In this document: piece after piece, positions 5,432-50,260 of the stretch | Numbering within the stretch: position 1 is the stretch's first letter | Layout of the letters: the number at the start of each line of letters is the position of its first letter | Sequence record: PQ159479 | Origin: Escherichia phage Henu4_2 | DNA length: 50,260 nt | Direction: 5' to 3' (one strand) | Position numbers and translations under genes: made by a program | Notes under the pieces: generated by a model | What the model saw: the letters and a program-made list of their open reading frames with translations, nothing else | Told to the model about the DNA's origin: nothing | Database searches by the model: none

Positions 5432-5673
5432 ACAGAAAAATGCTTGTTCGCGCCTTTGCTAAAATTTCTAAAAGGTGGGGAGACTCTAACAAATCGCCTT
5501 ACACATTTAGCCGTTACGGTTATAAAAACGCTCGCGCCTGGGGTCGCTGCATTGCGGATAACTACAACGCCGAAATGCTGGAAGATTTCGCAAAGTGGAT
5601 TGATACGCCTTTGAAGGATTGGTGTCAATTTGACTATGACTATTTCGCAGAAGAAGAAATTTCTTGTTGGTAA
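5428..5673 (+). CDS. hypothetical protein
   Basis: 81-aa ORF, RBS AAGGAGA. Confidence 0.45.
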   Translation: MNRKMLVRAFAKISKRWGDSNKSPYTFSRYGYKNARAWGRCIADNYNAEMLEDFAKWIDTPLKDWCQFDYDYFAEEEISCW

Positions 5674-5684
5674 GGAGAGTAAAC

Positions 5685-6182
5685 ATGATCGCTAAAAATG
5701 ACCTTTGCAACCTGTTAACGGCTGGTAATGATTATCAGGTTTTGAATAGCACAAAAGACCGTTATTTTATTGAGTGTGACAATGGGGATCGCATGTGGCT
5801 TAAAAAAGGCTTTTTCGAAAGTGAGCATCTATGCAATGCAAAGCGAATCGCAGATGAAGCAAGCGCATTAGCAGAGCGTGAACGAATTCGCGATATAGTA
5901 GCGGAGCAGGTTAGAAATTCATGTTTGCCTGGTGGCGATATCTTCAAATCAATGCGCGGTGAAATGACGGTTGGAATTCAAGATCGCGTAATTGAAAAAT
6001 CAGTTGATCCTGTAATTGAGAATGCGCGATTCAATGCGTTGATTAACTCAGAGACTAACGAATACATTAAAGTGTTAGAGCAACTGCGTGAAGTGCTGCG
6101 AGTGCCGGAAGGTGAAAATATTGTCACTCATGCAAAAGTTGTAAGAGCGTTGGCTGATGCGCTGATTGGTCTGCAAAAATAG
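5685..6182 (+). CDS. hypothetical protein
   Basis: 165-aa ORF from ATG 5685 with RBS AAGGAGAG; stop TAG inside motif copy 7. Confidence 0.5.
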   Translation: MIAKNDLCNLLTAGNDYQVLNSTKDRYFIECDNGDRMWLKKGFFESEHLCNAKRIADEASALAERERIRDIVAEQVRNSCLPGGDIFKSMRGEMTVGIQDRVIEKSVDPVIENARFNALINSETNEYIKVLEQLREVLRVPEGENIVTHAKVVRALADALIGLQK

Positions 6183-8322: not shown

Positions 8323-8347
8323 AACCCGCCTTGCGCGGGTTTTTTTG
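8323..8347 (+). terminator. rho-independent terminator closing the left early region
   Basis: ACCCGC-CTTG-GCGGGT followed by TTTTTTT. Confidence 0.7.
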
Positions 8348-8393
8348 TGCATACAATTTAGCTATAATCACGCATCAACAGGAGGATTTTATT

Positions 8394-8918
8394 ATGGCTA
8401 AAAAAACAGAAGCGCCAGCGGCGGAAAGTCTAAACTTTAAAAAGTTATGGAATAAGCGATATTCCGATCTGGTAGGTAGTGAGATTGATAAACGCGCAAC
8501 GCTAACGCCGGAACAGGTCATGAATCTGATTGTTCAGTATTTTGAATGGGCGGAGCTAAACGCTATTAAAGCAGGTGAAACGGCATCATTTCAGGGGCGA
8601 GTGTATCAGGACACGATTCACAAGCCGCGTATTTTTACATGGGAAGGATTAAAGCTTTTTTGCGGTTTTTCCGGCACAGCACTAGCAAAGTGGAAACTTA
8701 AACCAGGCTATGATGTTGTTATTGAGTTTGCAGAATCGGTGATCAAAGAACAAAAATACCAGTTAGCGGCAAACGGAATGATTAACAGCACCATGATCGC
8801 AAAAGAGCTTGGTATTGATAAAGGCGACACGTTCAATATTAGCGCTAACGCCAAAGAGCAAGACAATACAGAAGAAGCGATGAAAAACGCAGTCGCAAGC
8901 GTCCTAAGTAAGATTTAA
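8394..8918 (+). CDS. terminase small subunit (by position)
   Basis: 174-aa ORF immediately upstream of TerL; TATAAT at 8363-8368 and RBS GGAGGA. Confidence 0.5.
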   Translation: MAKKTEAPAAESLNFKKLWNKRYSDLVGSEIDKRATLTPEQVMNLIVQYFEWAELNAIKAGETASFQGRVYQDTIHKPRIFTWEGLKLFCGFSGTALAKWKLKPGYDVVIEFAESVIKEQKYQLAANGMINSTMIAKELGIDKGDTFNISANAKEQDNTEEAMKNAVASVLSKI

Positions 8919-8929
8919 AGGTGAATGCT

Positions 8930-10501
8930 ATGTTGATTTGGGAAGATTTAACAAAACTTGAAAAGCTGGCTATTAAGGAATTAAGTACACACGATTTTGA
9001 TACTTTCGTTAAAATATGGTTTCCGATCCAGCAGGGCGAAAAATGGATTCCTAACTGGCATCACCTTTATATTGCAAGGGCAATTGATGAAATTATTGAA
9101 GGTGTGCGCAAAGATACCATTTTTAACGTAACGCCAGGTTCAGGTAAAACCGAATTACTTTCGATCCACTTTCCGCCTTATTCATATCTAAAATTGAACA
9201 AGGTGCGAAATCTTAATATTTCGTTTGCTGATACGCTGGTTAAACGTAACAGCAAGCGTGTGCGCGATCTGGTTAACTCGCGAGAATGGCAAGAGCTTTA
9301 CCCCGCAAAAACTGGTACAAGCAAGGATGATGAATTTCAGATCCTTAATGACGCTGGCAAAGTTCGCCTGGAAATGATTAGTAAATCAATGGGCGGTCAG
9401 ATTACTGGTAGCCGTGGCGGTTACATCACGCCTGGTGTTTATTCCGGTTGCGTAACGCTTGACGATCCAGAAAAGCCAGATGATATGTTTTCGAAGGTGA
9501 AGCGTGAGCGCGGTCAAATGATCGCAAAGAACACCATTCGATCACGTCGCGCACATTCAGAAACGCCGATTATCGTTATTCAGCAGCGTCTACACGCGCA
9601 GGATATGACCTGGTTTCTGATGAATGGCGGAATGGGTATTGAATTTGATCAGATATCAATTCCGGCGATGGTTACAGAGGAATACGGGAAATCGCTTCCT
9701 GATTGGTTGCAACCGCACTTTGAAAAGGATGTGCTTTCGTCTGAATACATCGTTATTGACGGCGTGAAGTATTATTCTTTTTGGCCTAGCAAGGAAAGCA
9801 TTCATGACCTGAAAGCGCTACGCGATGCGGATTTGTACACGTTTCTTTCTCAGTATCAGCAAGAGCCAATTGCTCTTGGCGGTAACGCAATTAACGTTGG
9901 ATGGTTCCAGTATTATGGAACAGGAGAAAAATCAACGATGCCAAAACCGGATCGCTTTGATTATACGTTTATTACAGCAGATACCGCTCAGAAAGAAGGT
10001 GAGCTAAACGACTACAGCGTTTTGTGTTATTGGGGCATGTTCAAAGGCCGCATCTATTTTATTGACGGTGTGCGCGGCAAATGGGAAGCGCCAATGTTAG
10101 AAACGCAGTTTAAAGCGTTTGTTAAACAGTGCTGGAACCGTAACAAAGAATGCGGAAACTTGCGTAAAATTTACGTGGAAGATAAAGCGAGCGGCACAGG
10201 TTTGATCCAGAATTGCCGCAAAGCATTTCCGATAGAAATTACGCCAGTGCAACGCGATAAAGACAAAGTAACGCGATGCATGGACGCACAACCAGTGATC
10301 AAGAATGGTTATGTTGTATTGCCTGAATCGCATCACATGCTTGCTGAATTTCTGGCAGAGGCGGCGGCATTCACTTATGATGACAGCCATCCTCATGATG
10401 ATATTATGGATAACCTTTTTGACGCGGTTAATATTGAGCTTAACCTTGCTGATAATGCGGTTGATAGAATGAAGCGTTTAGCTGGATTAGCGAAGCGTTA
10501 A
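8930..10501 (+). CDS. terL: terminase large subunit
   Basis: N-terminal P-loop-like VTPGSGKTE; C-terminal RNaseH-like nuclease acidic motifs (ITADTAQKEGELNDYSV, HPHDDIMDNLFDAV); alternative GTG start at 8921. Confidence 0.85.
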   Translation: MLIWEDLTKLEKLAIKELSTHDFDTFVKIWFPIQQGEKWIPNWHHLYIARAIDEIIEGVRKDTIFNVTPGSGKTELLSIHFPPYSYLKLNKVRNLNISFADTLVKRNSKRVRDLVNSREWQELYPAKTGTSKDDEFQILNDAGKVRLEMISKSMGGQITGSRGGYITPGVYSGCVTLDDPEKPDDMFSKVKRERGQMIAKNTIRSRRAHSETPIIVIQQRLHAQDMTWFLMNGGMGIEFDQISIPAMVTEEYGKSLPDWLQPHFEKDVLSSEYIVIDGVKYYSFWPSKESIHDLKALRDADLYTFLSQYQQEPIALGGNAINVGWFQYYGTGEKSTMPKPDRFDYTFITADTAQKEGELNDYSVLCYWGMFKGRIYFIDGVRGKWEAPMLETQFKAFVKQCWNRNKECGNLRKIYVEDKASGTGLIQNCRKAFPIEITPVQRDKDKVTRCMDAQPVIKNGYVVLPESHHMLAEFLAEAAAFTYDDSHPHDDIMDNLFDAVNIELNLADNAVDRMKRLAGLAKR

Positions 10502-31717: not shown

Positions 31718-34009
31718 TTAAGCACTTCCGTTAAGCATTGATTTTACAATGTTTTTCAGTTCGTCTAACTCATTGCGTAATGTGTTAATTTCCTCCTGTT
31801 GCCTTGCAATTGTTTCATTTTGCTTATCAGAATCATCAATCATTTCATTGATTGCGTTAACCAAAAGAGCGGTAACGCCGTTATAGTTAACACCTAAAAT
31901 CTCACTATCATCAGATACTTTATAAACAGATTCCGGTAAAACCGTTTGCACATCTTGAGCTATTACACCAGCTTCCTCAGAGTAGAAAGAATATTCATCC
32001 TCAATTAGATTGTTTCTCTTGAAGTAAGTGTAACCTTTAATTGATTTAACTTTCTCCTTTGCTGTTTTAATTTCTTTTAATTGAGCCTTTAGGCGAATAT
32101 CGGATGTGCTAATCCAACTAGCGGCTGTTGCATTACCATTGGAAGCAAATCCAAACTCACCACCACCAACCAGAATCCTTTGAAAAGGAGATCCATCTTC
32201 ATAAATAACAATGTCAGAAGCGCAAGCATGTTGATCACCCCACCTTGTAACTTTCCATATGTTAGCAGCAGCGCCCCTTGTGTTTAGTTCAACCATTAAA
32301 CCACAGGCTCTATTCCTCCAATCAACATGAGCGCCAGCACCAACTACGCCAGATATAAATGATGAAGCATCACCATTCCTTACTCCTTGAACATAAGCAA
32401 ACCTACCAGATTCCACAACCCAAGAATTTAAAGTTCTATATAACGCAACTTCTGATGGTGTCCATGCAAAAATGTTTTGACCATTAGAAACAGCTTGAAT
32501 TACACCGTCGCTACTCCATCTCAATCCAGTGTCAGGATCACCAATCGTGATCGAGTAATCACCAAACGTTGATACTACATCGGGAGGCAGTAACATCAAT
32601 CGATTATCAGATCTTGCTATCCTGTACCATCCACCCCAAGAGCCAGCATTGCAAATTACTCCCCATTTATTACCGTTCATTGCTGTTGCAACAATATTAC
32701 CGTACTCAACATGACCACTTGCATTTCTACCGTGTACATGTAACTCAAACATCCACCATCCAGAGGCTTCAGGCGGTAAGTATGTTGCAAGATCACCGCA
32801 AGAGTAATAACCGCTTTCTGCGTATGTTGACATAAACCCAAGAACGTTTGAATTATTAGGGATGCCAATTGCTTGACCGCCAACAGGAGTATTCAAGTTC
32901 TTTCTTGCTCCAACATCACTTGTTGCACCAGTTCCGCCCTGTTGAATTCCAAGAGGAATCCAGCCACCTCCAGCATCAGTCCAAACACCCCAGCCATTAT
33001 CATTATTTATAGTGATTCTAAGTGGAGAATTGCCTGGCGCATACATCATAGTTTCAGTTGCTGATTGCCTGAAACGCTCAATCCCAAAGTTTATCTTTGC
33101 ACCTTCTACGTTTTCAGCACCAGTACCGCCAGCACCAATAGAAAGCGCAGATGTGCTGTTATTTTCATTACGCGCAACGCGCCATTCCCCATTGTTAGCG
33201 ATCCGTAATTCATAAGTCCATGCAGGATTACGAAAAGAATTATAAGCGCCAGCATATTGATCTTTTACAGAATTAACAGCCTCAACTTTTAGCGCCTCCC
33301 TTGCAAGGTCTTTGTTTGCAAGATCATTAAGGTTTTGATCCTTATGCAGAAGATTTTCAGGCTGTACCTGTTGCGCCCATTGGCGAGCTTCATCACGCGC
33401 GTCTAACGCTTCATTTTTAATTCCGGTTATCTCAGTAACGGCAGAATCTTTAATCTGTTGCGTTTGGTTTTTTATTGCGTCCGTGTCGGCCTTAATCTGA
33501 TTGGTTTCAGAAACAGCGGCATTTTTAATCTGTTGAGTTTCAGAAACGGCGGAATCCTTAATTGTTTGCGTGTCGCTTTTTAATTGTTCTGTCGCGGCTC
33601 GGTCTGCATCAGTTTTTTGAGCGGAAGCCTCAGCGCGAGCAACAAGATCCTGTAATGTTTTTAAATCAAAGTTTTTGAAAAATTCAAGCGCTTCCTCAAT
33701 AACAGTTTCTTTACTTTGGTAATAGCGCAGAGTTTCCGCAACATCTTGCGCCATTCCATCTACCGTTAAAGAGTCATTCAACAGGATCACATAATTTCCG
33801 TTTTCTACTGGCTCGCCGTCAGTCTGGATCGCTTTCATTTCCGTGTCGCTTACAATATCGCTAATCACAGCCAATTTAAGAGGCGATGTGAGAAATACGA
33901 TTGTTGCGCCAGTGCGGATAAGAGAAAGAGGCTCACGCCATTTTGTGCCAGTACCAGTAATAACGCCTTGCGCGTCCATTGCAGCCGTACCAGTGCGATA
34001 TAAAGCCAT
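31718..34009 (-). CDS. tail fibre with C-terminal intramolecular chaperone (peptidase S74) domain
   Basis: C-terminus TSDIRLK...GYTYF...GVIAQDVQTVLPESV typical of S74 autoproteolytic chaperone; Gly/Trp-rich beta region; coiled-coil repeats. Confidence 0.85.
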   Translation of the reverse strand: MALYRTGTAAMDAQGVITGTGTKWREPLSLIRTGATIVFLTSPLKLAVISDIVSDTEMKAIQTDGEPVENGNYVILLNDSLTVDGMAQDVAETLRYYQSKETVIEEALEFFKNFDLKTLQDLVARAEASAQKTDADRAATEQLKSDTQTIKDSAVSETQQIKNAAVSETNQIKADTDAIKNQTQQIKDSAVTEITGIKNEALDARDEARQWAQQVQPENLLHKDQNLNDLANKDLAREALKVEAVNSVKDQYAGAYNSFRNPAWTYELRIANNGEWRVARNENNSTSALSIGAGGTGAENVEGAKINFGIERFRQSATETMMYAPGNSPLRITINNDNGWGVWTDAGGGWIPLGIQQGGTGATSDVGARKNLNTPVGGQAIGIPNNSNVLGFMSTYAESGYYSCGDLATYLPPEASGWWMFELHVHGRNASGHVEYGNIVATAMNGNKWGVICNAGSWGGWYRIARSDNRLMLLPPDVVSTFGDYSITIGDPDTGLRWSSDGVIQAVSNGQNIFAWTPSEVALYRTLNSWVVESGRFAYVQGVRNGDASSFISGVVGAGAHVDWRNRACGLMVELNTRGAAANIWKVTRWGDQHACASDIVIYEDGSPFQRILVGGGEFGFASNGNATAASWISTSDIRLKAQLKEIKTAKEKVKSIKGYTYFKRNNLIEDEYSFYSEEAGVIAQDVQTVLPESVYKVSDDSEILGVNYNGVTALLVNAINEMIDDSDKQNETIARQQEEINTLRNELDELKNIVKSMLNGSA
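33410..33575 (-). repeat. in-frame ~33-bp tandem repeats inside the tail fibre gene
   Basis: repeated TTTCAGAAACRGCGGMATYYTTAATYKKTTG units encoding SAVSETxQIKN-like 11-aa repeats. Confidence 0.5.
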
Positions 34010-34164: not shown

Positions 34165-35091
34165 TTATAATAAGTCACTTGCCTTGTAAAGCCTCCGCTC
34201 TATTCCATTTTTGAATTTACCGTTAACTGGTAACATTACGTCTAATTCTCGATCATCAGCAGCAATCAAAGTATCGCGATCATTAGCATGGCACACAACG
34301 CGCATTTTGCGATCTCCTTTGTATCTGTATGCAACAATTTCAAGATTTGAAGGTGAAAAACACGCCCATACTTCTTGCCCCGTCGCCAGGTGTATATGTT
34401 GCGCATCAATCCAATCAACGCAAAGGTAAATTGTTTTGTCAGTCTTGCCAGTTACCGCAACGCTTCCGCGCGTGTAATCTTTCGCGTAAAAACTGCTTTT
34501 ACCTTCCTCATTGACGAAAAGAATATTGCACATGTCATCATCCAATTCATCACTATGCACCAGGTGGCAAGGAATAGCGTGTATATGCTCGCAATATCCA
34601 TTGTCATGAGTTTTTACGCCAACTTGATACGATTCGCCGTCTAATGGATAAAACGCCTCAAAAACGCTTAGGTTTGTTATTTCCATGCGTTCAGTTTTAT
34701 CCATCACCTCAACACATTTTTCATGAGGTGCTTGCGATCCGAAATTGTAACCGGAATCACGTTTTGCCGCTTTGTTAGCCTTGTTGACAACCTCAACCGG
34801 AACCAGGTTTAACCATTCGCCTAGCGTGTCGATTGCTTCACTGTAATTTTCACCACGTATGCGCATGAACAATCCGATCCCTGAATCATTCCCACATTGG
34901 TTGCAAATGTTGCCGCCGTCGCCTTTCTCGTTGATTTTGTCAGTCCAACGAAAGCGATCTTTACCGCCGCAATAAGGGCATGGTTGGTGTTTGCCGTTAA
35001 AGGTTAATTGAGGAATATCGCAAAGTTTCATTAATGCCGCTTGCCACATGCCGCGCATTTTTGGGATCACTTCTTCTTTTTGATAATGCAT
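34165..35091 (-). CDS. DNA primase (zinc ribbon + TOPRIM-like)
   Basis: Zn-ribbon HQPCPYCGGKDRFRW...CNQCG. Confidence 0.75.
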   Translation of the reverse strand: MHYQKEEVIPKMRGMWQAALMKLCDIPQLTFNGKHQPCPYCGGKDRFRWTDKINEKGDGGNICNQCGNDSGIGLFMRIRGENYSEAIDTLGEWLNLVPVEVVNKANKAAKRDSGYNFGSQAPHEKCVEVMDKTERMEITNLSVFEAFYPLDGESYQVGVKTHDNGYCEHIHAIPCHLVHSDELDDDMCNILFVNEEGKSSFYAKDYTRGSVAVTGKTDKTIYLCVDWIDAQHIHLATGQEVWACFSPSNLEIVAYRYKGDRKMRVVCHANDRDTLIAADDRELDVMLPVNGKFKNGIERRLYKASDLL

Positions 35092-35149: not shown

Positions 35150-35758
35150 TTAGCAATCAGTGCTATCGACGGAAATCACAACGCGTTTCTTCTGATTGGC
35201 TTCCTTTGCTTTGCGCCGTTCTTCTTTCTCCTTGTCGCGTTCAGCCTTGCGCCGCGCTTTCTCCTTCTCGCGTTCTTCTGGAGTCATAGACCGTAACGGA
35301 TCGTAAGGCCGGACAAATCCCCTTGCTTCCGCTTCCTCTTTGGTTACAAATCGCATCAGCTTTCTGTTGCTGCAACGATTCTCTAATGGTTTTCCGTTAT
35401 TATCAAACTTGATATCTGGACGGCAATATGAAGCGCGAAAACCGTTAAAACCTTTGCGGCGGTAATCTTTCTGGATCAGTTCAGCGCCTTTAGTTGAAAT
35501 CATGCCGCGCTCTTTCCATCCCCATACTGTTTTAAGGTTAACGCCAATTTCACGCGCCAGGGCAGCGCAACCGCCGTAAGCGTTGACAACTTCATCAAGA
35601 CGCGCTTTTAATCCGGCTCTTACTTCTTCCTTTAATACAAGATAACCGCTAACAGGTGCGCGACGTTTGCGATCTTTACCACGTCTTACGCCGTTGTTAC
35701 CATTGATTGTGCGTTTGTCGATTTCGCCAGTTGAGGCGGCAATTTTGATTTCGCTCAT
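35150..35758 (-). CDS. HTH DNA-binding protein with polybasic C-terminal tail (putative regulator)
   Basis: HTH-like CAALAREIGVNLKTVWGWKERG; C-terminal KR/E-rich; start at ATG 35758 with RBS AGGTGA. Confidence 0.55.
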   Translation of the reverse strand: MSEIKIAASTGEIDKRTINGNNGVRRGKDRKRRAPVSGYLVLKEEVRAGLKARLDEVVNAYGGCAALAREIGVNLKTVWGWKERGMISTKGAELIQKDYRRKGFNGFRASYCRPDIKFDNNGKPLENRCSNRKLMRFVTKEEAEARGFVRPYDPLRSMTPEEREKEKARRKAERDKEKEERRKAKEANQKKRVVISVDSTDC

Positions 35759-35768
35759 ATTTTCACCT

Positions 35769-35811
35769 ATAGCACTTTTTGCTAAAAAACTTGATTGAGT
35801 TTGTGTATGAT
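35769..35811 (+). promoter_or_regulatory. conserved early element copy 9 upstream of helicase operon
   Basis: ATAGCACTTTTTGCTAAAA then TATGAT. Confidence 0.5.
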
Positions 35812-35835
35812 ATGCCGCAAATGGCATTTAGTCAA
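35807..35835 (-). promoter_or_regulatory. sigma70 promoter for HTH gene (TTGACT-17-TATCAT), -10 overlapping the plus-strand -10
   Basis: minus-strand TTGACT (35835-35830), 17-nt spacer, TATCAT (35812-35807). Confidence 0.6.
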
Positions 35836-35846
35836 AAGGATAAAAA

Positions 35847-37820
35847 ATGATTCCTAACATTGAAAAGCAGATTGCAGATCTTGGAGAGGAAAGGATTAAG
35901 GCAATACAGAAGCGTTTCACGGTTGGTGAGATTGTCCCGTATGAATACCAATGCGTTGCTTACGCTGAAATTGCAAAGCGCTTGAGTAAGTATGTTGATC
36001 CGTTTTTCGTAAAAGCGGCGGTATCGGCAGGTAAAACAATCATCTTTGCTATGGTTGCGGCTCAGTGCCGTAAAATGGGGTTGAAAGCGTTATTTCTGGC
36101 GCGTCAATCTGAAATTGTGGATCAGGATTCAAAAGAGATTAGCGCCTTTGGTGTTCCGAATTCCGTTTATTGCGCTGGCCTGAATACCAAAAGCGCTTAT
36201 TTCCCGATTGTTGTCGGATCGGAAGGCACTGTAATTGGTGGATTGAATAAAGCGTTGGGTGATTACGTCCCACAGGTTTTAGGTATAGATGAATGCCATC
36301 AAGTAAACTGGAATGACATTGTGGAAGCCGAGGAAAACGGCGAAAGCATAGAGCAAATGATGACTCCGAAAGGTGAACCAGTTGAAGGGCATCCGTTGCT
36401 GATTGGTTCAGGCCGCGCACAATACACCATTATCATTGCAGAAATGCGCCGCCGTTGCCTTGAGACTTACGGTCATCAGTTGCGCATATTTGGAATGACA
36501 GGATCGGAATATCGCGGAATTGAGCCGATACTTGTCGAAGATAAAAGAATTCCTGGGTTTTGGCGTGAGCAGATCACAAACATTGATACTGATTACTTGG
36601 TTAAATTTGGTTCAGTTGTTCCCACTTATTTTGGCAATGTTGGTGATTTGGGTTATGACTTATCAGAATTTACGCCAGTACATGAATTTGGCGTTGCTGA
36701 TTATGACCAGAAGCAATTAAAGGCAATGAGTGACAAGATTCACAAATCAGGAACCATGACGCAGAAAATAATGCAGATGGTTCATGAGGTGATGAAAAAC
36801 CGCTTGTGCGCTCTTGTTACTTGCGCTGACGAAAGGCACTGCAAAGAGGCGGCGGCGGCGCTTCCTCCTGGCACGAAATATCACATTATCACCGGAAAAA
36901 CTGGAGAGAAACAGCGGCGCTTATGGCTTGAGGATGCCTATGAAGGGCGCGTGAAATACATATTCCAGGTTCAAGCGCTAACAACTGGAGTGAACGTTCC
37001 GCCGTGGGATACTTCTGTTATTTTGCGTAAGATCGGAAGCCTGACGCTATTAACTCAGCTTTTGGGGCGCGGTATGCGTCAATTAAAAACTTACCATAAA
37101 GAAGTATTGGGAATGCACAAAACGGATCACCTTGTTTTGGATTTTTCCGGCACGATGTTTGAAATGGGTAATTTGTATTTCGATCCGATGTTAGAGCAAG
37201 CGCAATTCCAGTTGCGTAAATCACAGGATAAAGATCCGAAATATTGCCCGATTTGCGGCACAGAAAATTCATTCTATGCTCGCCGTTGCATTAATGAAGA
37301 TGAAAACGGAAATCGTTGTGAGCACTTTTGGACTTTTCAAACGTGTGAGGATCAGATTGATGACCGCACAAAGAAAATAACGGTAAAAGGTTGTGGTGCT
37401 AAAAATGACGTTGCGGCGCGTGTATGCCGTTGCTGTAATGTTCAGTTACGCGATCCAAATGATAACTTATCCGGCAAGATGTACCGTAAAAACGATTGGT
37501 GCGACGTGTTAGATTTTAATGTGACGCTGACAAAAAACCAGGCTGGGGTAATATTCTGCTACACGTTGCGTGATAGTGGCGGCGTAGAATTCAGGGCATA
37601 CGAAAAATATTTCCCTGAATCAGAACACAAGATATGTAAAACGCTTTGGACAAAGGCGGTTAGAACACACGTTATAGATCGCCAGGCCGCAAACTTTATG
37701 ATCACTTGCAGAAATGCAATTAAGATCATGAGTTATGCTGGGCAAATATTGCCACCAAAACGTGTTACCCATCGCAAGAACACAAAGAAAGAAGATTTGA
37801 TCGCACAGAAGGAGTTTTAA
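35847..37820 (+). CDS. superfamily II DEAH-type helicase with C-terminal zinc-ribbon region
   Basis: Walker A AAVSAGKT, motif II GIDECHQ; C-terminal CPICGT...C..C cluster. Confidence 0.85.
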   Translation: MIPNIEKQIADLGEERIKAIQKRFTVGEIVPYEYQCVAYAEIAKRLSKYVDPFFVKAAVSAGKTIIFAMVAAQCRKMGLKALFLARQSEIVDQDSKEISAFGVPNSVYCAGLNTKSAYFPIVVGSEGTVIGGLNKALGDYVPQVLGIDECHQVNWNDIVEAEENGESIEQMMTPKGEPVEGHPLLIGSGRAQYTIIIAEMRRRCLETYGHQLRIFGMTGSEYRGIEPILVEDKRIPGFWREQITNIDTDYLVKFGSVVPTYFGNVGDLGYDLSEFTPVHEFGVADYDQKQLKAMSDKIHKSGTMTQKIMQMVHEVMKNRLCALVTCADERHCKEAAAALPPGTKYHIITGKTGEKQRRLWLEDAYEGRVKYIFQVQALTTGVNVPPWDTSVILRKIGSLTLLTQLLGRGMRQLKTYHKEVLGMHKTDHLVLDFSGTMFEMGNLYFDPMLEQAQFQLRKSQDKDPKYCPICGTENSFYARRCINEDENGNRCEHFWTFQTCEDQIDDRTKKITVKGCGAKNDVAARVCRCCNVQLRDPNDNLSGKMYRKNDWCDVLDFNVTLTKNQAGVIFCYTLRDSGGVEFRAYEKYFPESEHKICKTLWTKAVRTHVIDRQAANFMITCRNAIKIMSYAGQILPPKRVTHRKNTKKEDLIAQKEF

Positions 37821-38581: not shown

Positions 38582-39319
38582 ATGGCTAAGGATTTTCAGG
38601 ACAAAGCAACCATTGATACTTTTGAGCCGGAAATGGATTTTCATGAATTGCAACACGGAAGATATTCAGATATTGCGCTGCGTTCAGGTGGTCATTATCA
38701 GCCAGTTAGAGAAAACACGTTTTTGAAGGTTAGCGGCAACCGTTATGCAGGAAGTAAAACGCCGGACGTTGTGCGCGATTTGTGGGAAACGCCAGATGAA
38801 ATTGTTGATTATCTTGCTGAACGTTACGGCAAATATGATCTTGATGCAGCCGCAACAGAAGATAATAAAAAATGCGATAAGTTTTACAGCAAAGAAACAA
38901 ACTGTTTAAAGCGTTGGTGGGGTAGCAATAAGCATGTTTGGCTTAATCCGCCATACAGCAATCCAGATCCGTTTGTGTTAAAAGCAATTGAGCAGATGGA
39001 ACACGGAAACCAGATTGATATTTTACTTCCGGCTGACAACTCAACCGCATGGTTTAGCGATGCACAAAAACACGCGGCGGAAATTATCTGGATCACTGGC
39101 GAAACATGGGAAGAAGAAGGAAAACAATATTCCCGCACTGGTCGAGTGTCGTTTATTTCTGGCATGACAGGTGAGCAAGTTAGTGGAAACAATAAAGGAA
39201 GCGTGATTTTTATCATGCGCCAACTGAAAGAAGGTGAGCAACAACAAACTCATTATGTGCCAATTAGTGAAATTTGCCCTTCTGTTAAGAACAAACGCAC
39301 AAAAGCGCGGAGTATTTAA
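38582..39319 (+). CDS. dam: DNA N6-adenine methyltransferase (Dam-like)
   Basis: catalytic NPPY motif in WLNPPYSNP. Confidence 0.8.
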   Translation: MAKDFQDKATIDTFEPEMDFHELQHGRYSDIALRSGGHYQPVRENTFLKVSGNRYAGSKTPDVVRDLWETPDEIVDYLAERYGKYDLDAAATEDNKKCDKFYSKETNCLKRWWGSNKHVWLNPPYSNPDPFVLKAIEQMEHGNQIDILLPADNSTAWFSDAQKHAAEIIWITGETWEEEGKQYSRTGRVSFISGMTGEQVSGNNKGSVIFIMRQLKEGEQQQTHYVPISEICPSVKNKRTKARSI

Positions 39320-43007: not shown

Positions 43008-44588
43008 TTACCCCATTAACGCAGGATTGACATAAACAAATTTACCAACGCTGCAAACATAATTCTTTTCTTCAAGCATTGGCAATAATTGTTCTTCAAT
43101 TCGTTTCATAACGCCTGATTGACCTGTAAACGGCTTAACCTTACGCGCACTTTCATATATCGCTCTTGCATTGGTAACGCCTTTATTTTGACGTGAGATC
43201 TTAATGATGATTTCAATTAGCTTGCTCATTTCGGCATCATCGCCAGCGTGACCTGAAGCATTCGCGGCGTTAATATATGTTTTGCTTAATTCGCTGAACA
43301 TCACCAAAGCCTCTTGCATTGTCTCAACTTCAATTTCTCGCGACTTTTGCGGCGTACCGTTTGGATTAAACCAATTGCGGATCGTGTGCAATACTGACGC
43401 AATGCGGATAACTTGCTTATCCATTTTACCCAAAGCACCACGCAACATTGTATGTGAATATTTCCCGCCGTCTGCTAAATCTGGCTCTAATTGCTGTCGA
43501 GCAATATTAAGGACACGCATTGCAGAACGTGACGGCTTCAATACAACATTTTGTTCAGTCATGATGTTATGAATCAACTGGAAATATTGCGCCTTTAATT
43601 CTTTATCAACTGGCGTGTAATCAAGATCACCATTTTCATCAATAAATACACGCTCGCCTAACATTGTTTTTTCACGCACAAGCAAGAAACGTTCACTAAC
43701 ACCGATACCCCGCGCCCCTGCATCCATGATCCCTTTTATCGTTTCATCCTGGGCAATTACGCTCATGCAGCCCAACGCAACAAAACTCATATTGTTTTCA
43801 GAATTGGCGCGAGCTATTGAAACGTGTCCTGCGTCCCATGCTTTTAGAACCAATTCGCTGTTAGTCTTGCGATCACTATTAGCGTAAGTCAATCCGAGTA
43901 AGCTGTTGATGCTTGTTGCTTCATCGGAAATGACAGCAAAGTTACCCTGGCGATTGTTGATCTTTGCTAACCCTTCCGGCGTGGTGTCTGATACCGGAAA
44001 AACGATATCGCACATTTTTTCTAACTTTTCCTCTAATTCCTCCTTTTCCTCAAACAGCGCCGCTAACTCAGTGCCGGAACGTTCAGCTTTCAATTCCTTT
44101 TCAACGCCTTTTAATTTCGCTGCGATCTTCTTTCGCTCTTTCTTGCGTTGTTCGTTGATGCGCTCAACTTCACAGACCATTGGCGCAATAGCCAGGCTGT
44201 TGATTGCTGATTTACCAGTTGATGGCGGCTGACTGGTTACAACATAAAGCGCAGTTGGTTGTTCAGTGCCGTGGTACTCAACTTGGAAGCGTCCAACCAT
44301 AGCGGCGGAAACGCAACCAATGAAATGCATATAGGCCGATGATTCAGGAAATTGAACAGATTGCGCAATGCTACGTGACAGTTTACCCACAACATCAACA
44401 TCATTACCCAAAGAGATCACAGGATAACGGTCATTAGCGCCGTTGATATCCTTTACAGGTTCCCAAAAGCTGGACGATTGGCGGTAGCCGTTCGACTGAA
44501 TAGCAACGCGAAGCGGCGATGTTCCCTGCGATTCTGCAATGGCTATAACTTGTTGAGGTGTCAATTTGTTGGTGTCAAAGTCAAACAT
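43008..44588 (-). CDS. DUF3987-like P-loop protein (replication-associated, function unknown)
   Basis: Walker-A-like SQPPSTGKSA; DTTPEGL, SDEA, KAWDAGHVSIAR, IAQDE, RFLLV match my recollection of the DUF3987 consensus. Confidence 0.55.
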   Translation of the reverse strand: MFDFDTNKLTPQQVIAIAESQGTSPLRVAIQSNGYRQSSSFWEPVKDINGANDRYPVISLGNDVDVVGKLSRSIAQSVQFPESSAYMHFIGCVSAAMVGRFQVEYHGTEQPTALYVVTSQPPSTGKSAINSLAIAPMVCEVERINEQRKKERKKIAAKLKGVEKELKAERSGTELAALFEEKEELEEKLEKMCDIVFPVSDTTPEGLAKINNRQGNFAVISDEATSINSLLGLTYANSDRKTNSELVLKAWDAGHVSIARANSENNMSFVALGCMSVIAQDETIKGIMDAGARGIGVSERFLLVREKTMLGERVFIDENGDLDYTPVDKELKAQYFQLIHNIMTEQNVVLKPSRSAMRVLNIARQQLEPDLADGGKYSHTMLRGALGKMDKQVIRIASVLHTIRNWFNPNGTPQKSREIEVETMQEALVMFSELSKTYINAANASGHAGDDAEMSKLIEIIIKISRQNKGVTNARAIYESARKVKPFTGQSGVMKRIEEQLLPMLEEKNYVCSVGKFVYVNPALMG

Positions 44589-45294: not shown

Positions 45295-45339
45295 CATTAT
45301 GCCGGATACGTGATCCGGCGTTTTAACAAAAAGTGCTAT
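45295..45339 (-). promoter_or_regulatory. conserved early element (minus), stem GCCGGAT/ATCCGGC, CATAAT
   Basis: minus-strand AATAGCACTTTTTGTTAAAAC + hairpin + CATAAT + TTCAACGAAAAC leader. Confidence 0.5.
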
Positions 45340-46031
45340 TTCTGATTTGCCAGGCATACAGCAAGCGCAAAGCCGCGCGGAGTGAGTGAGCGGATCAGCT
45401 TTGTTCGCTTAGACTTACCGCCTAGCTTTTGCCAGCCTGGATTGTTGTTCCCTGTTGGCAATACTGCGTTTGTATCCGGCATTACAAAACCGTTACCCGT
45501 CCAAAGGCAAGTTTTTTTGGTGTACGCATCGCGAGCGGGAATGATTTCAGGAAAGTGAGGATGTTTATCATCTTCCGGCAACAGACCGCCAAATGCGCAA
45601 GGATGAAAGATAAAATCAGGTTGCCTCCACATCGACGACAGGACGCTAACAGGATTCTCGATCATGTATGGAACGTTAAACCGATCCGCAATATTGGCAG
45701 CAATCTTTGCCGTTTCAACCGCCTTTTTCTGGAAGTCTGGATCACGTTCACGCTTTGCTGCAAAGTGACGCGATCCGCTAACAGCTAAATCAGTGCATGG
45801 AGGGAATGCAATAATAAAATCTGGAGTGCCAAAGACGCGCATCATTGCGTTATGCTGGAATGATAATCCGATCCACTCATTCAAATAAACGATGTTGGGA
45901 TGAGTCACGCGCACTGATTGGTAATCACCATGATCAGCACCGTCGAAATTAAAGCACAGCACTTTGTGACCACGTTCAGCCCACGGCAACGCAGCATAAC
46001 CAGAACCATCAAATAGTGAGAAAATAAGCAT
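45336..46031 (-). CDS. putative DNA cytosine-5 methyltransferase (short form)
   Basis: motif I-like FSLFDGSGYAA, motif IV-like AFPPCTD, motif VI-like YMIENPV; ATG 46031 with RBS AAAGGA. Confidence 0.55.
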   Translation of the reverse strand: MLIFSLFDGSGYAALPWAERGHKVLCFNFDGADHGDYQSVRVTHPNIVYLNEWIGLSFQHNAMMRVFGTPDFIIAFPPCTDLAVSGSRHFAAKRERDPDFQKKAVETAKIAANIADRFNVPYMIENPVSVLSSMWRQPDFIFHPCAFGGLLPEDDKHPHFPEIIPARDAYTKKTCLWTGNGFVMPDTNAVLPTGNNNPGWQKLGGKSKRTKLIRSLTPRGFALAVCLANQK

Positions 46032-46140
46032 GTTTAAATCCTTTCTGTATGACCTTGTAAGGCGTTTTGTTTGTAGGTGTCGCAACTGTATTGGCTACGG
46101 CCTGAAATCGCGACACGACGCTAAACAGGCCGCTATTTTT

Positions 46141-48873: not shown

Positions 48874-49015
48874 AAATCACCTCCCCAAATTCTCCGATTA
48901 CTTGCGCCTTGTAATATCCGCCACGGTTAGCCAACAAATACGCCTGACTAAGTGTTTCAAACACGCGGGTTACTGGCTGGCTGTTTTCGTGTTCCCAGGT
49001 AATCAAAGTAGTCAT
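48857..49015 (-). CDS. small hypothetical protein (52 aa)
   Basis: ATG at 49015 after motif copy and GAGGA RBS; below the ORF-track cut-off. Confidence 0.35.
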   Translation of the reverse strand: MTTLITWEHENSQPVTRVFETLSQAYLLANRGGYYKAQVIGEFGEVIYEFHA

Positions 49016-49040
49016 TGCTAAATCCTCATTTCGTTTCGAT

Positions 49041-49093
49041 GGGATAACTATATCAAGTTACCCCGATCCGGTTTTAACAAAAAATGCTATTTA
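49041..49093 (-). promoter_or_regulatory. conserved early element (minus), stem GGGGTAAC/GTTATCCC with TATAGT in loop
   Basis: minus-strand AAATAGCATTTTTTGTTAAAAC + hairpin + ATCGAAACGAAATGAGGA. Confidence 0.5.
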
Positions 49094-49525
49094 CAGCCAT
49101 TCGCCGGAAACAATGAAATCAGTGAAATCGTCATGATCCAAAATGCTGTGATAGCCAGTGCAATAATCATTTTTAACCATGTGACCACGCAAACGCACAT
49201 AATCAGCCTTTCGATCCGTAATCCAACGAATAAAGCGAGCGTTACGTTGTGGTATCGTTCCGGCGTAAGCCTCTTTGAATCCAATGTGTGCGATGAATGC
49301 CACAAAGCGGATTTGCAAGCCTGGATTGTCTTTCTTTGCCTCGTTAACAAGATCTCGGAAGTTTTCACGCGTTGGCTTGACCGGAACCAATTCGCCTAAC
49401 TCGATCATTCGGTTGAAGTCTGAAATGCTGGAATATGATTGCATAAACAGCCCATCGCTACCAAACATCACAACGCCGTTTTCGATGAAGTAAGTTTGTC
49501 CGTTGTATTTGTTTGTGTATTTCAT
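49091..49525 (-). CDS. hypothetical protein (first gene of right-arm early cluster)
   Basis: 144 aa from ATG 49525 with RBS GAGGAA (ORF is open from 49561). Confidence 0.5.
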   Translation of the reverse strand: MKYTNKYNGQTYFIENGVVMFGSDGLFMQSYSSISDFNRMIELGELVPVKPTRENFRDLVNEAKKDNPGLQIRFVAFIAHIGFKEAYAGTIPQRNARFIRWITDRKADYVRLRGHMVKNDYCTGYHSILDHDDFTDFIVSGEWL

Positions 49526-49556
49526 CGTGAATTCCTCAGTTCGTTTCGATGAAGTA

Positions 49557-49602
49557 ATCATAGCAATTCGTGACTGATTGGTTTTAACAAAAAGTGCTAT
49601 TC
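49557..49602 (-). promoter_or_regulatory. conserved early element (minus) with adjacent half-copy, TATGAT
   Basis: minus-strand GAATAGCACTTTTTGTTAAAACC followed by CACGAATTGCTATGAT and TTCATCGAAACGAAC leader. Confidence 0.5.
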
Positions 49603-49608
49603 ATGCGA

Positions 49609-49638
49609 TAGACCGATTGGTCTAGACCGTTTGGTCTA
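49609..49638. promoter_or_regulatory. two overlapping 16-bp palindromes (operator-like)
   Basis: TAGACCGATTGGTCTA and TAGACCGTTTGGTCTA sharing a central TA. Confidence 0.5.
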
Positions 49639-49670
49639 ATGAACACATCGTTTCTTGTATCGAACGGATT

Positions 49671-49706
49671 CACGATCACGTTATGCGATCACAATATGAT
49701 CACGTT
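49671..49706. repeat. cluster of three GATCAC (Dam-site) repeats at 11-13 bp spacing
   Basis: GATC at 49674, 49687, 49698, each in a CGATCAC context. Confidence 0.5.
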
Positions 49707-49720
49707 GATGATTGATGTGT

Positions 49721-49770
49721 GAGTTGATGTGATGTGATTTGATTAGATTTGATTAGATTTGAGTAGCGAG
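49721..49770. repeat. five tandem 10-bp iteron-like repeats
   Basis: GAGTTGATGT / GATGTGATTT / GATTAGATTT / GATTAGATTT / GAGTAGCGAG. Confidence 0.5.
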
Positions 49771-49919
49771 AGAGTGGAAATAATCACACCTTGCCGATCT
49801 CGTGAAAACTTTTCCGCAAAACATCACACCCTGGCTTGCGCGTTGTCTAAAACGTTCCACGATGTTCACGGGTTTACCTTCCGTAAAAAAGCGAAACAGA
49901 AAACAACAATGAATCACCC

Positions 49920-50080
49920 TATAACATACTAAAAAGTAAGATAATTTTATTTATATATCTATAAAAGTTTCTAGTTGTTTAGCTTGTTCTCTATATATAG
50001 GGATACCCCACGTATATTTTCTAACTTTATATGGTTATGTGTATGCTCCAGGGTATATGTATATATATGGGTATGTTCCG
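49920..50080. repeat. AT-rich low-complexity region (control region B, related to 28430-28620)
   Basis: shares TATATATCTAT, GTTCTCTAT and TATATATGGTATG blocks with region A. Confidence 0.5.
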
Positions 50081-50199
50081 AAATCGGCGTAGTTTTTGAA
50101 AACGCGCCGCAAAACATTGAAATCAAAGGCGATAAACACAAAAAGGCGTCTAAACAGAACAATATTCTGATTGTAGACATAAGAACAACAGAAAAAACT

Positions 50200-50228
50200 T
50201 TGACTATGCGCCAGCACATCAGCATAAT
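50200..50228 (+). promoter_or_regulatory. near-consensus sigma70 promoter (TTGACT-17-CATAAT) for gene 1
   Basis: TTGACT 50200-50205, CATAAT 50223-50228; ATCAAAACCAATCAGGAGAAAACCCT leader runs to the window end; ATG at position 1 on circularisation. Confidence 0.65.
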
Positions 50229-50260
50229 GCACACATCAAAACCAATCAGGAGAAAACCCT

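Follow-up and report, generated by a model that had tools for sequence, protein, structure and literature searches.

A probable packaging-initiation (pac) region in the gap between the divergent arms of the Tlsvirus phage Henu4_2

What role is played by the repeat-rich, non-coding DNA that separates the two arms of Escherichia phage Henu4_2? The window analysed here, the whole stretch of 50,260 nt, is a complete, circularly permuted genome of a Tlsvirus (T1-like siphovirus; Drexlerviridae, Tempevirinae), the last 1.26 kb of which are matched by 74 phage records and are 98.9% identical to Escherichia phage vB_EcoS_011D2. A sequence-only reading had proposed either a replication origin or a pac site between two divergent arms of a phage that encodes its own Dam methylase, primase and helicase.

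A non-coding gap between divergent arms

The placement between divergent arms was borne out by a 699-bp non-coding gap (49562-50260), which is bordered by the start codon of the last minus-strand gene at 49561 and by the ATG of the first plus-strand gene at position 1; on both sides of it lie small, divergently transcribed genes. Pfam matches and annotation of the ORFs likewise confirmed the three enzymes, and the proteins and the promoter that bear on the question are as follows.

8331-8918, plus strand: terminase small subunit, P22 gp3 family (Pfam PF16677; PHROG 606)
8921-10501, plus strand: terminase large subunit (Pfam PF17289, nuclease domain)
34165-35091: primase
35847-37820 and 43008-44588: two helicases or helicase-like proteins
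38582-39319, plus strand: phage Dam methyltransferase (Pfam PF05869, E = 7e-63)
50200..50228, plus strand: rightward sigma-70 promoter TTGACT-17-CATAAT, for the first plus-strand operon

The combination of a gp3-type small subunit (PF16677) with the nuclease domain of the large subunit (PF17289) is that of a headful terminase. Its genes sit 8.3 kb downstream of the candidate pac region, and the two subunits (8331-10501) are the proteins expected to act on that region. The rightward promoter is equivalent to the TLS promoter P01 (523..549; Supplementary Table S1, PMC11447400), and an Rfam scan of 49000-50260 found no known RNA, the sole match being a meaningless miRNA (E = 0.3). The ORF at 45336-46085 (minus strand, 249 aa), called dcm in TLS and U136B, carries the C5-cytosine-methyltransferase-like motif FPPCTDLAVSG and has no Pfam match at E <= 0.001; judged by this motif, it would be a second, divergent methyltransferase beside Dam.

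We consider it likely that 49660-49830 is the pac (packaging initiation) region of this T1-like headful phage, its location being given by the ends mapped in relatives. Of the two functions originally proposed, the pac half gained support from these ends, which lie within the homologous repeat array or slightly to its right, whereas the origin half received no positive support. A pac site in the gap between the arms of T1-like phages is known from the literature, and the reading as a replication origin is not favoured; what is new is the fine anatomy of the gap and the recurrence of the array in five genera. The elements of the gap, from left to right, are the following.

49557..49600, minus strand: leftward promoter module, a DR repeat plus an extended -10, at the left border of the pac island
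49609-49624, no strand assigned: inverted repeat TAGACCGATTGGTCTA (TAGACC-N4-GGTCTA)
49623-49638, no strand assigned: inverted repeat TAGACCGTTTGGTCTA (TAGACC-N4-GGTCTA)
49674..49701, no strand assigned: three GATC (Dam) sites, directly left of the array
49704..49766, plus strand: oriented C-free TGAT(G/T) array, eight copies including about three of GATTTGATTA
49722..49830, plus strand: proposed first-cut zone with the conserved downstream block GAGTAG-GAGAGAG-GAAATAATCACACCTTGCCGATC...
49920..50080, no strand assigned: AT-rich block, conserved in position and composition, mosaic in sequence

Packaging ends of relatives and the TGAT array

We then compared the gap with packaging ends mapped in related phages. 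For TLS, a submolar pac-HindIII fragment of about 6 kb had yielded a restriction-mapped pac end (PMC11447400), and position 1 of the TLS record corresponds to this end, since HindIII and EcoRV sites are found in the record at 5876 and 2733, respectively. This position aligns to about 49722 in Henu4_2, inside the array and directly after the invariant TGATGATTGATGTGTG, with the gel resolution setting an uncertainty of roughly +/-100-200 bp and the fine placement having been made by the hexamer AGATTT alone, which occurs 38 times in the Henu4_2 genome. Position 1 of the T1 record is the left end of an annotated 2,800-bp terminal repeat and lies in an analogous array, where the order is DR, then GATC-N6-GATC, then TGATGAGATGTGATT followed directly by GTTG. 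For the Tlsvirus phages GS71 and GS166, genome starts and ends were PhageTerm-checked as headful pac, the coordinate itself being unprinted (PMC12896672); position 1 of GS166 aligns to 49780. Furthermore, MSK, an Rtp-like phage of another subfamily, gave a PhageTerm forward-strand peak at 36,862 (p = 1.6e-9; PMC8421802), and this peak is situated among TGATT repeats, 148 bp to the right of the DR within the homologous divergent gap. Unique virion ends are thus found at the homologous sites of TLS, T1, GS166 and MSK; sorted by distance from the DR, the four offsets are 85, 119, 148 (MSK) and 179 bp (a spread of about 95 bp), and the SU57 paper also placed the pac of T1-like phages in the untranslated region between the arms.

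Not all record starts are independent, the U136B record having merely been re-opened to match TLS; those of MBBL140 and of KKP 3830 (99.7% identical to YSP2) were discounted as probably non-independent. OR786094.1, deposited as "Streptococcus phage MBBL140" with S. agalactiae as host, contains the Tlsvirus region and has the same record end as TLS, and is probably a mislabelled or contaminant enterobacterial phage.

The array in which, or just right of which, these ends fall had been described as five tandem 10-bp repeats. The tract is present, but five copies are reached only when two degenerate ones are counted: in the output of Tandem Repeats Finder, GATTTGATTA is repeated 3.1 times (49736-49766) and TGATT 8.6 times (49720-49762). 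TGAT[GT] occurs eight times within 70 bp, against four at the next best place in the genome and a shuffle maximum of six (n=200), and no stretch of the genome stays free of C for longer than the 63 nt at 49704-49766, a run that exceeds all shuffles. Among the Tlsvirus genomes Henu4_2, TLS, U136B and ElisaCorrea, this cluster is in each the sole genome-wide maximum (7-8 vs 4 next best), so that the presumed recognition sequence marks a single place in all four; in T1, the TGAT[GT] density merely equals the shuffle maximum, and in MSK the density at the array is not the highest in the genome. Elsewhere in the Henu4_2 genome, the top-scoring tandem repeat (33490-33566, a 33-bp unit in 2.4 copies, score 101) is located within a 763-aa ORF (31718-34009, minus strand) whose homologue is annotated as tail fibre in relatives, and the longest A-free runs of the plus strand, two adjacent ones of 47 and 38 nt (35196-35281), reflect coding composition, since they encode the Lys/Glu/Arg-rich C-terminal tail of a transcriptional-regulator gene (35150-35827, minus strand).

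The oriented motif is shared beyond Tlsvirus. In the 200 bp right of the DR, we counted 4-6 copies of oriented TGATT, versus about 0.6 expected, in Tlsvirus, T1, MSK (Rtp-like), IsaakIselin (Henuseptimavirus) and RareGolfball (Webervirus), with Poisson P values of 3e-3 to 3e-5 and at most one copy in the reverse orientation. The oriented TGATT array therefore recurs across the Drexlerviridae genera tested (n=5). The motifs that accompany it differ by subfamily, with TTGCA/TGCAAT in T1 and MSK, and the small terminases of the T1 and MSK subfamilies are only about 49% identical to those of Tlsvirus, a combination that fits co-evolution of protein and site.

Within the array, the 18-nt block TGATGATTGATGTGTGAG (49706-49723) was invariant in 17/17 of the Tlsvirus relatives aligned, and GATTTGATTAGATTTGAGTAG was nearly invariant among the same 17 genomes. 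Folding of the repeat array gave no secondary-structure signal (z +0.4 and -0.5), which fits a binding site for protein on double-stranded DNA; intrinsic curvature, as judged from AA/TT periodicity at 10-11 bp, was unremarkable (8th-23rd percentile) and thus gave no hint of the built-in bend that some pac sites possess. On the basis of these sequence features, the TGAT(G/T) array at 49704-49766 is probably the recognition array for the small terminase, and its TGAT units may be the terminase contacts.

To what extent is this DNA held constant? In the alignment of the pac region from 17 Tlsvirus genomes, an island from the DR to about 49845 (49562-49845) was present in 17/17, with conservation decaying by about 49845, and the repeats are kept in these relatives, as the initial proposal demanded. 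A whole-genome comparison of three phages, TLS, U136B and ElisaCorrea, revealed that both the left gene (49091-49561) and the DNA to the right (49901-50260 and 1-474) are non-homologous in them, and among Tlsvirus genomes at least four versions of the right half of the gap, unrelated in sequence, can be distinguished. With non-homologous genes on both sides and a variable right half of the gap, the island appears as a fixed point between two hot spots of mosaic exchange. A stronger claim, namely conservation of the island above that of coding DNA, was rejected, since its identity is 80-92% as against a genome mean of 92-94%; as far as these alignments indicate, the signal is one of retention between swapped flanks, not of unusual conservation. 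An assemblage of low-complexity spacer repeats that arose by chance and has no function would agree with this unexceptional identity, and with a GATC triplet that alone is no denser than random placement allows. It is nevertheless highly improbable, given a repeat cluster and a C-free run beyond all shuffles, an 18-nt block without a change in 17/17, an island retained while both of its flanks were exchanged, and the same oriented motif in five genera.

The pac reading is based on the coincidence of the relatives' mapped ends with features that are retained in relatives and unique in the genome, and it suggests a course of events. The small terminase, a ring oligomer of the P22-gp3 family, would bind the oriented C-free TGAT(T/G) array at 49704-49766 on concatemeric DNA; the large terminase would then make the first cut in the array or just right of it, probably somewhere within about 49722-49780; and a short series of headfuls would be packaged rightward, towards position 1 and the plus-strand arm.

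Dam sites, palindromes and the origin reading

Three GATCAC repeats at about one-turn spacing had also been noted beside the array. The sites are indeed present at 49674, 49687 and 49698, that is, 13 and 11 bp apart, but their density is within chance: the triplet is the tightest in the genome, and random placement of the 287 sites gave an equally tight triplet in 91% of trials, so that density was rejected as evidence. The GATC tetranucleotides were kept in 50/51 site-by-phage cells (17 Tlsvirus genomes, three sites) while their flanks exist in two versions, GATCAC versus GATCCT/GATCGT/GATCAG, which may reflect selection on GATC itself. The corresponding place in T1 carries two GATCs, 10 bp apart, and a fourth GATC of Henu4_2, at 49796, lies inside the conserved downstream block, about 75 bp right of the array. 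No such GATC sites are present at the arrays of MSK, IsaakIselin and RareGolfball. A correspondence between possession of a Dam gene and a GATC cluster at pac, which holds for T1, Tlsvirus and the Dam-less MSK, was dropped, as it is broken by the Dam-encoding IsaakIselin and RareGolfball. Genome-wide, GATC is over-represented in the Dam-encoding Henu4_2 (287 observed vs 186 expected from base composition), and the Dam-less MSK has just 66 GATC in 45 kb.

The phage Dam (38582-39319) would methylate the triplet, which, by analogy with P1, may couple recognition to Dam methylation, or may merely belong to the repeat series. A stricter version, in which pac of Tlsvirus and T1 is gated by the phage's own Dam, the triplet having to be fully methylated or to have escaped SeqA before terminase binds or cuts, is an analogy that we regard as rather unlikely. 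If true, Dam gating would delay packaging until replication yields mature concatemers, and would represent an independently evolved P1-like epigenetic switch with an unrelated gp3-type terminase and a site 8 kb from the terminase genes.

The same elements can be arranged as a replication origin, which could coexist with pac, with the TGAT repeats as iterons for a phage initiator, the GATC sites as a timer operated by Dam/SeqA and, as the unwinding element, the AT-rich block (49920-50080). The AT-rich region reported next to the repeats is real, reaching 80% AT around 49940-49990 (per 50 bp) and 82-90% in relatives, but it starts about 150 bp further right than reported. Its position is kept in 14/14 relatives whose locus reaches that far; however, it lies at least 150 bp from the repeats and in mosaic DNA, of which phages sharing replication genes have several unrelated versions. 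The site between the divergent arms does coincide with the cumulative GC-skew minimum, but GC skew tracks transcription direction throughout the genome. Although the phage encodes a primase, helicases and Dam, its replication genes are 5-15 kb away, and the genes flanking the gap are small ORFs of unknown function, with no initiator gene adjacent. Iteron origins such as lambda ori and plasmid oriV contain at least three direct repeats of about 17-22 bp beside an AT-rich element, with DnaA boxes or an initiator gene in cis. The repeat units of Henu4_2 are 5 or 10 bp, and a search for DnaA boxes found 0 perfect ones and 3 one-mismatch matches versus 1.6 expected, without a cluster. The literature on T1-like phages presents no mapped origin (TLS and SU57 papers), and the TLS genome was stated to have no iteron-like repeats (PMC11447400). 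T1 does have CGATTAACA x3 and CGATTA repeats flanking its own AT-rich block, but in the gap studied here the repeats coincide with mapped packaging ends, with no replication datum, and we consider an origin at this site unlikely. The AT-rich block is a candidate unwinding or promoter-context element outside the mapped pac zone. In T1 (100-125 and 395-430), a further DR copy occurs just right of the pac end, and direct repeats (CGATTACGATTACG; CGATTAACA x3) flank the AT-rich block; no element of the Tlsvirus gap would make as good an iteron candidate as these T1 direct repeats.

At its left border, the pac island begins with a promoter of the leftward arm. The DR copy (19-21 nt; ATAGCACTTTTTGTTAAAA, 49600->49582) is followed by the extended -10 TGcTATGAT, with the hexamer at about 49562->49557. 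The DR consensus aaATAGCACnnnTTGnTAAAA was described for TLS, where its role was posed as an open question (PMC11447400). In Henu4_2, the repeat (ATAGCACnnnTTGnTAAAA, 21 nt) has 21 copies, e.g. at 1192(+), 3610(+), 35166(-), 35769(+), 47685(-), 49090(-) and 49600(-). All 21 have a -10-like hexamer (TATAAT, CATAAT, TATAGT, TAAAGT, TATGAT) exactly 22 nt after TTGnTA, often with an extended-10 TGn, then a conserved CATCGAAACGAA-like leader and a ribosome-binding site. TTGnTA stands 5 bp too far upstream to serve as a sigma-70 -35, and the DR, at about -50 to -32, thus has the look of an upstream activator or UP-type element that belongs to extended -10 promoters.

Next to this promoter stand the two overlapping 16-bp palindromes of the earlier description. 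They are present with a 2-nt overlap, but are strictly 6-bp inverted repeats whose 4-nt centre is not symmetric. When up to 3 mismatches are allowed, the pattern has 4 matches versus 0.63 expected, a number reached by 1/100 shuffles, and the rest of the genome has no instance of it. All 44 phage records that carry the palindromes are Tlsvirus, and the palindromes are highly conserved in them; three of the 17 aligned relatives (CF1, ElisaCorrea and U136B) have unrelated DNA in their place, and in LL5 a symmetric double substitution (TATACC...GGTATA) preserves the inverted repeat. Conservation across the records and the symmetry in LL5, together with absence from 3/17, indicate that the palindromes are under selection where present yet dispensable for the function of the island. 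Sequence comparison thus assigns them as a Tlsvirus-specific accessory element beside the leftward promoter, not as the core of pac; their hairpin potential is moderate (z -1.9 to -3.2), and an operator-like site or a hairpin would both fit. Presence/absence profiling of palindrome-plus against palindrome-minus genomes for a binding protein gave no co-varying gene. The only candidate, the ORF at 1682-2245, was rejected, as CF1 has it in spite of lacking the palindromes and 223 phage records contain it, and the "GntR-family" label carried by the U136B homologue of ORF 5664-6182 has no Pfam support.

Could the locus instead be a control region of the divergent early operons, the palindromes being operators through which a dimeric phage or host regulator acts on the leftward DR promoter, and the repeats additional sites for regulators or nucleoid proteins? 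The palindromes border directly on the upstream edge of this promoter, where they occupy about -59 to -88 relative to the inferred leftward start, and the three Tlsvirus phages that are devoid of them keep the same promoter and pac island. Their strong conservation in the 44 Tlsvirus records favours this reading, as does the presence of other inverted repeats (ATTCCA...TGGAAT) at this place in T1 and Webervirus, expected for a co-evolving binding site; however, no gene co-varies with the palindromes, their pattern recurs nowhere else in the genome, and the symmetric change in LL5 fits a hairpin as well as a dimer site. HTH-type regulators are encoded by the phage, whereas from a screen of the Keio collection with LL5, itself a Tlsvirus phage, no requirement for a non-essential host DNA-binding protein emerged. 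Since the location of the mapped DNA ends is also left unexplained, transcriptional control as the function of the whole locus is distinctly unlikely; it may hold for the palindromes alone, which we regard as possible but doubtful, and not for the repeat array.

Comparison with known pac sites

We finally compared the proposed pac region with described systems. The closest are T1 and TLS, in which pac likewise lies in the non-coding gap between divergent arms of small genes, right of the last leftward DR promoter; the TLS sequence is homologous (86-95% identity in this part), the terminase family is the same (small subunit 98% identical to TLS and 49% to T1), and packaging is also rightward. 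The published descriptions of these sites consist of a coordinate only, in TLS supported by a hexamer likeness to P22 pac, and the oriented TGAT array, the invariant 18-mer, the GATC triplet and the tandem palindromes are not described in them. The pac of T1-like phages had thus been placed only roughly, and in TLS by a hexamer found 38 times in the Henu4_2 genome. The present analysis provides a testable anatomy, namely a TGAT array of one orientation that includes an invariant 18-mer, a conserved and presumed cut zone on its right and a conserved triplet of Dam sites. Such an anatomy could help to orient and annotate Drexlerviridae genomes, many of which are now being deposited, to engineer or reboot these phages and construct transducing or packaging vectors, and to predict pseudo-pac sites that bear on generalised transduction by candidates for therapy. 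The general understanding of headful packaging is unchanged.

P22, whose small terminase belongs to the same Pfam family (PF16677), also packages by the headful mechanism, starting at a unique site and with its cuts scattered across about 100 bp. Its pac is a single asymmetric 22-bp site inside gene 3, a terminase gene, whereas the region here is a repeat array in non-coding DNA. The best matches to the P22 22-mer across the Henu4_2 genome have 7/22 mismatches, lie elsewhere and are not better than chance, only AGATTT being common to the two sites. Both the hexamer-based placement in TLS and the resemblance to P22 pac therefore lack statistical meaning.

P1 pac (161-162 bp) contains seven TGATCA/G hexamers; Dam methylation regulates its cleavage, in which IHF/HU assist. 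P1 and Henu4_2 have in common headful packaging, a Dam-encoding genome and clustered Dam sites at roughly helical spacing, and the repeated unit here (TGATG/TGATT/GATCA) resembles the P1 hexamer. In P1, however, the hexamers stand on both sides of the cut, whereas here three GATCs, of which only one reads TGATCA, are left of the array and one GATC is distant; no IHF core motif was found at 49600-49900. P1 also uses the PacA/PacB terminase with a site inside the terminase genes, in contrast to the gp3-type enzyme and the distance of 8.3 kb here. The parallel is further weakened by IsaakIselin and RareGolfball, relatives that encode Dam and have no GATC cluster.

In SPP1, the pac region (pacL/pacC/pacR) consists of short direct repeats, bound by the small terminase, that flank a separate cleavage zone. 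SPP1 shares no sequence or protein homology with Henu4_2, its site overlaps the terminase gene region, and the intrinsic curvature looked for here was not found. The layout is nonetheless matched in Henu4_2, where the repeat array is followed by the conserved downstream block in which the packaging ends of relatives map.
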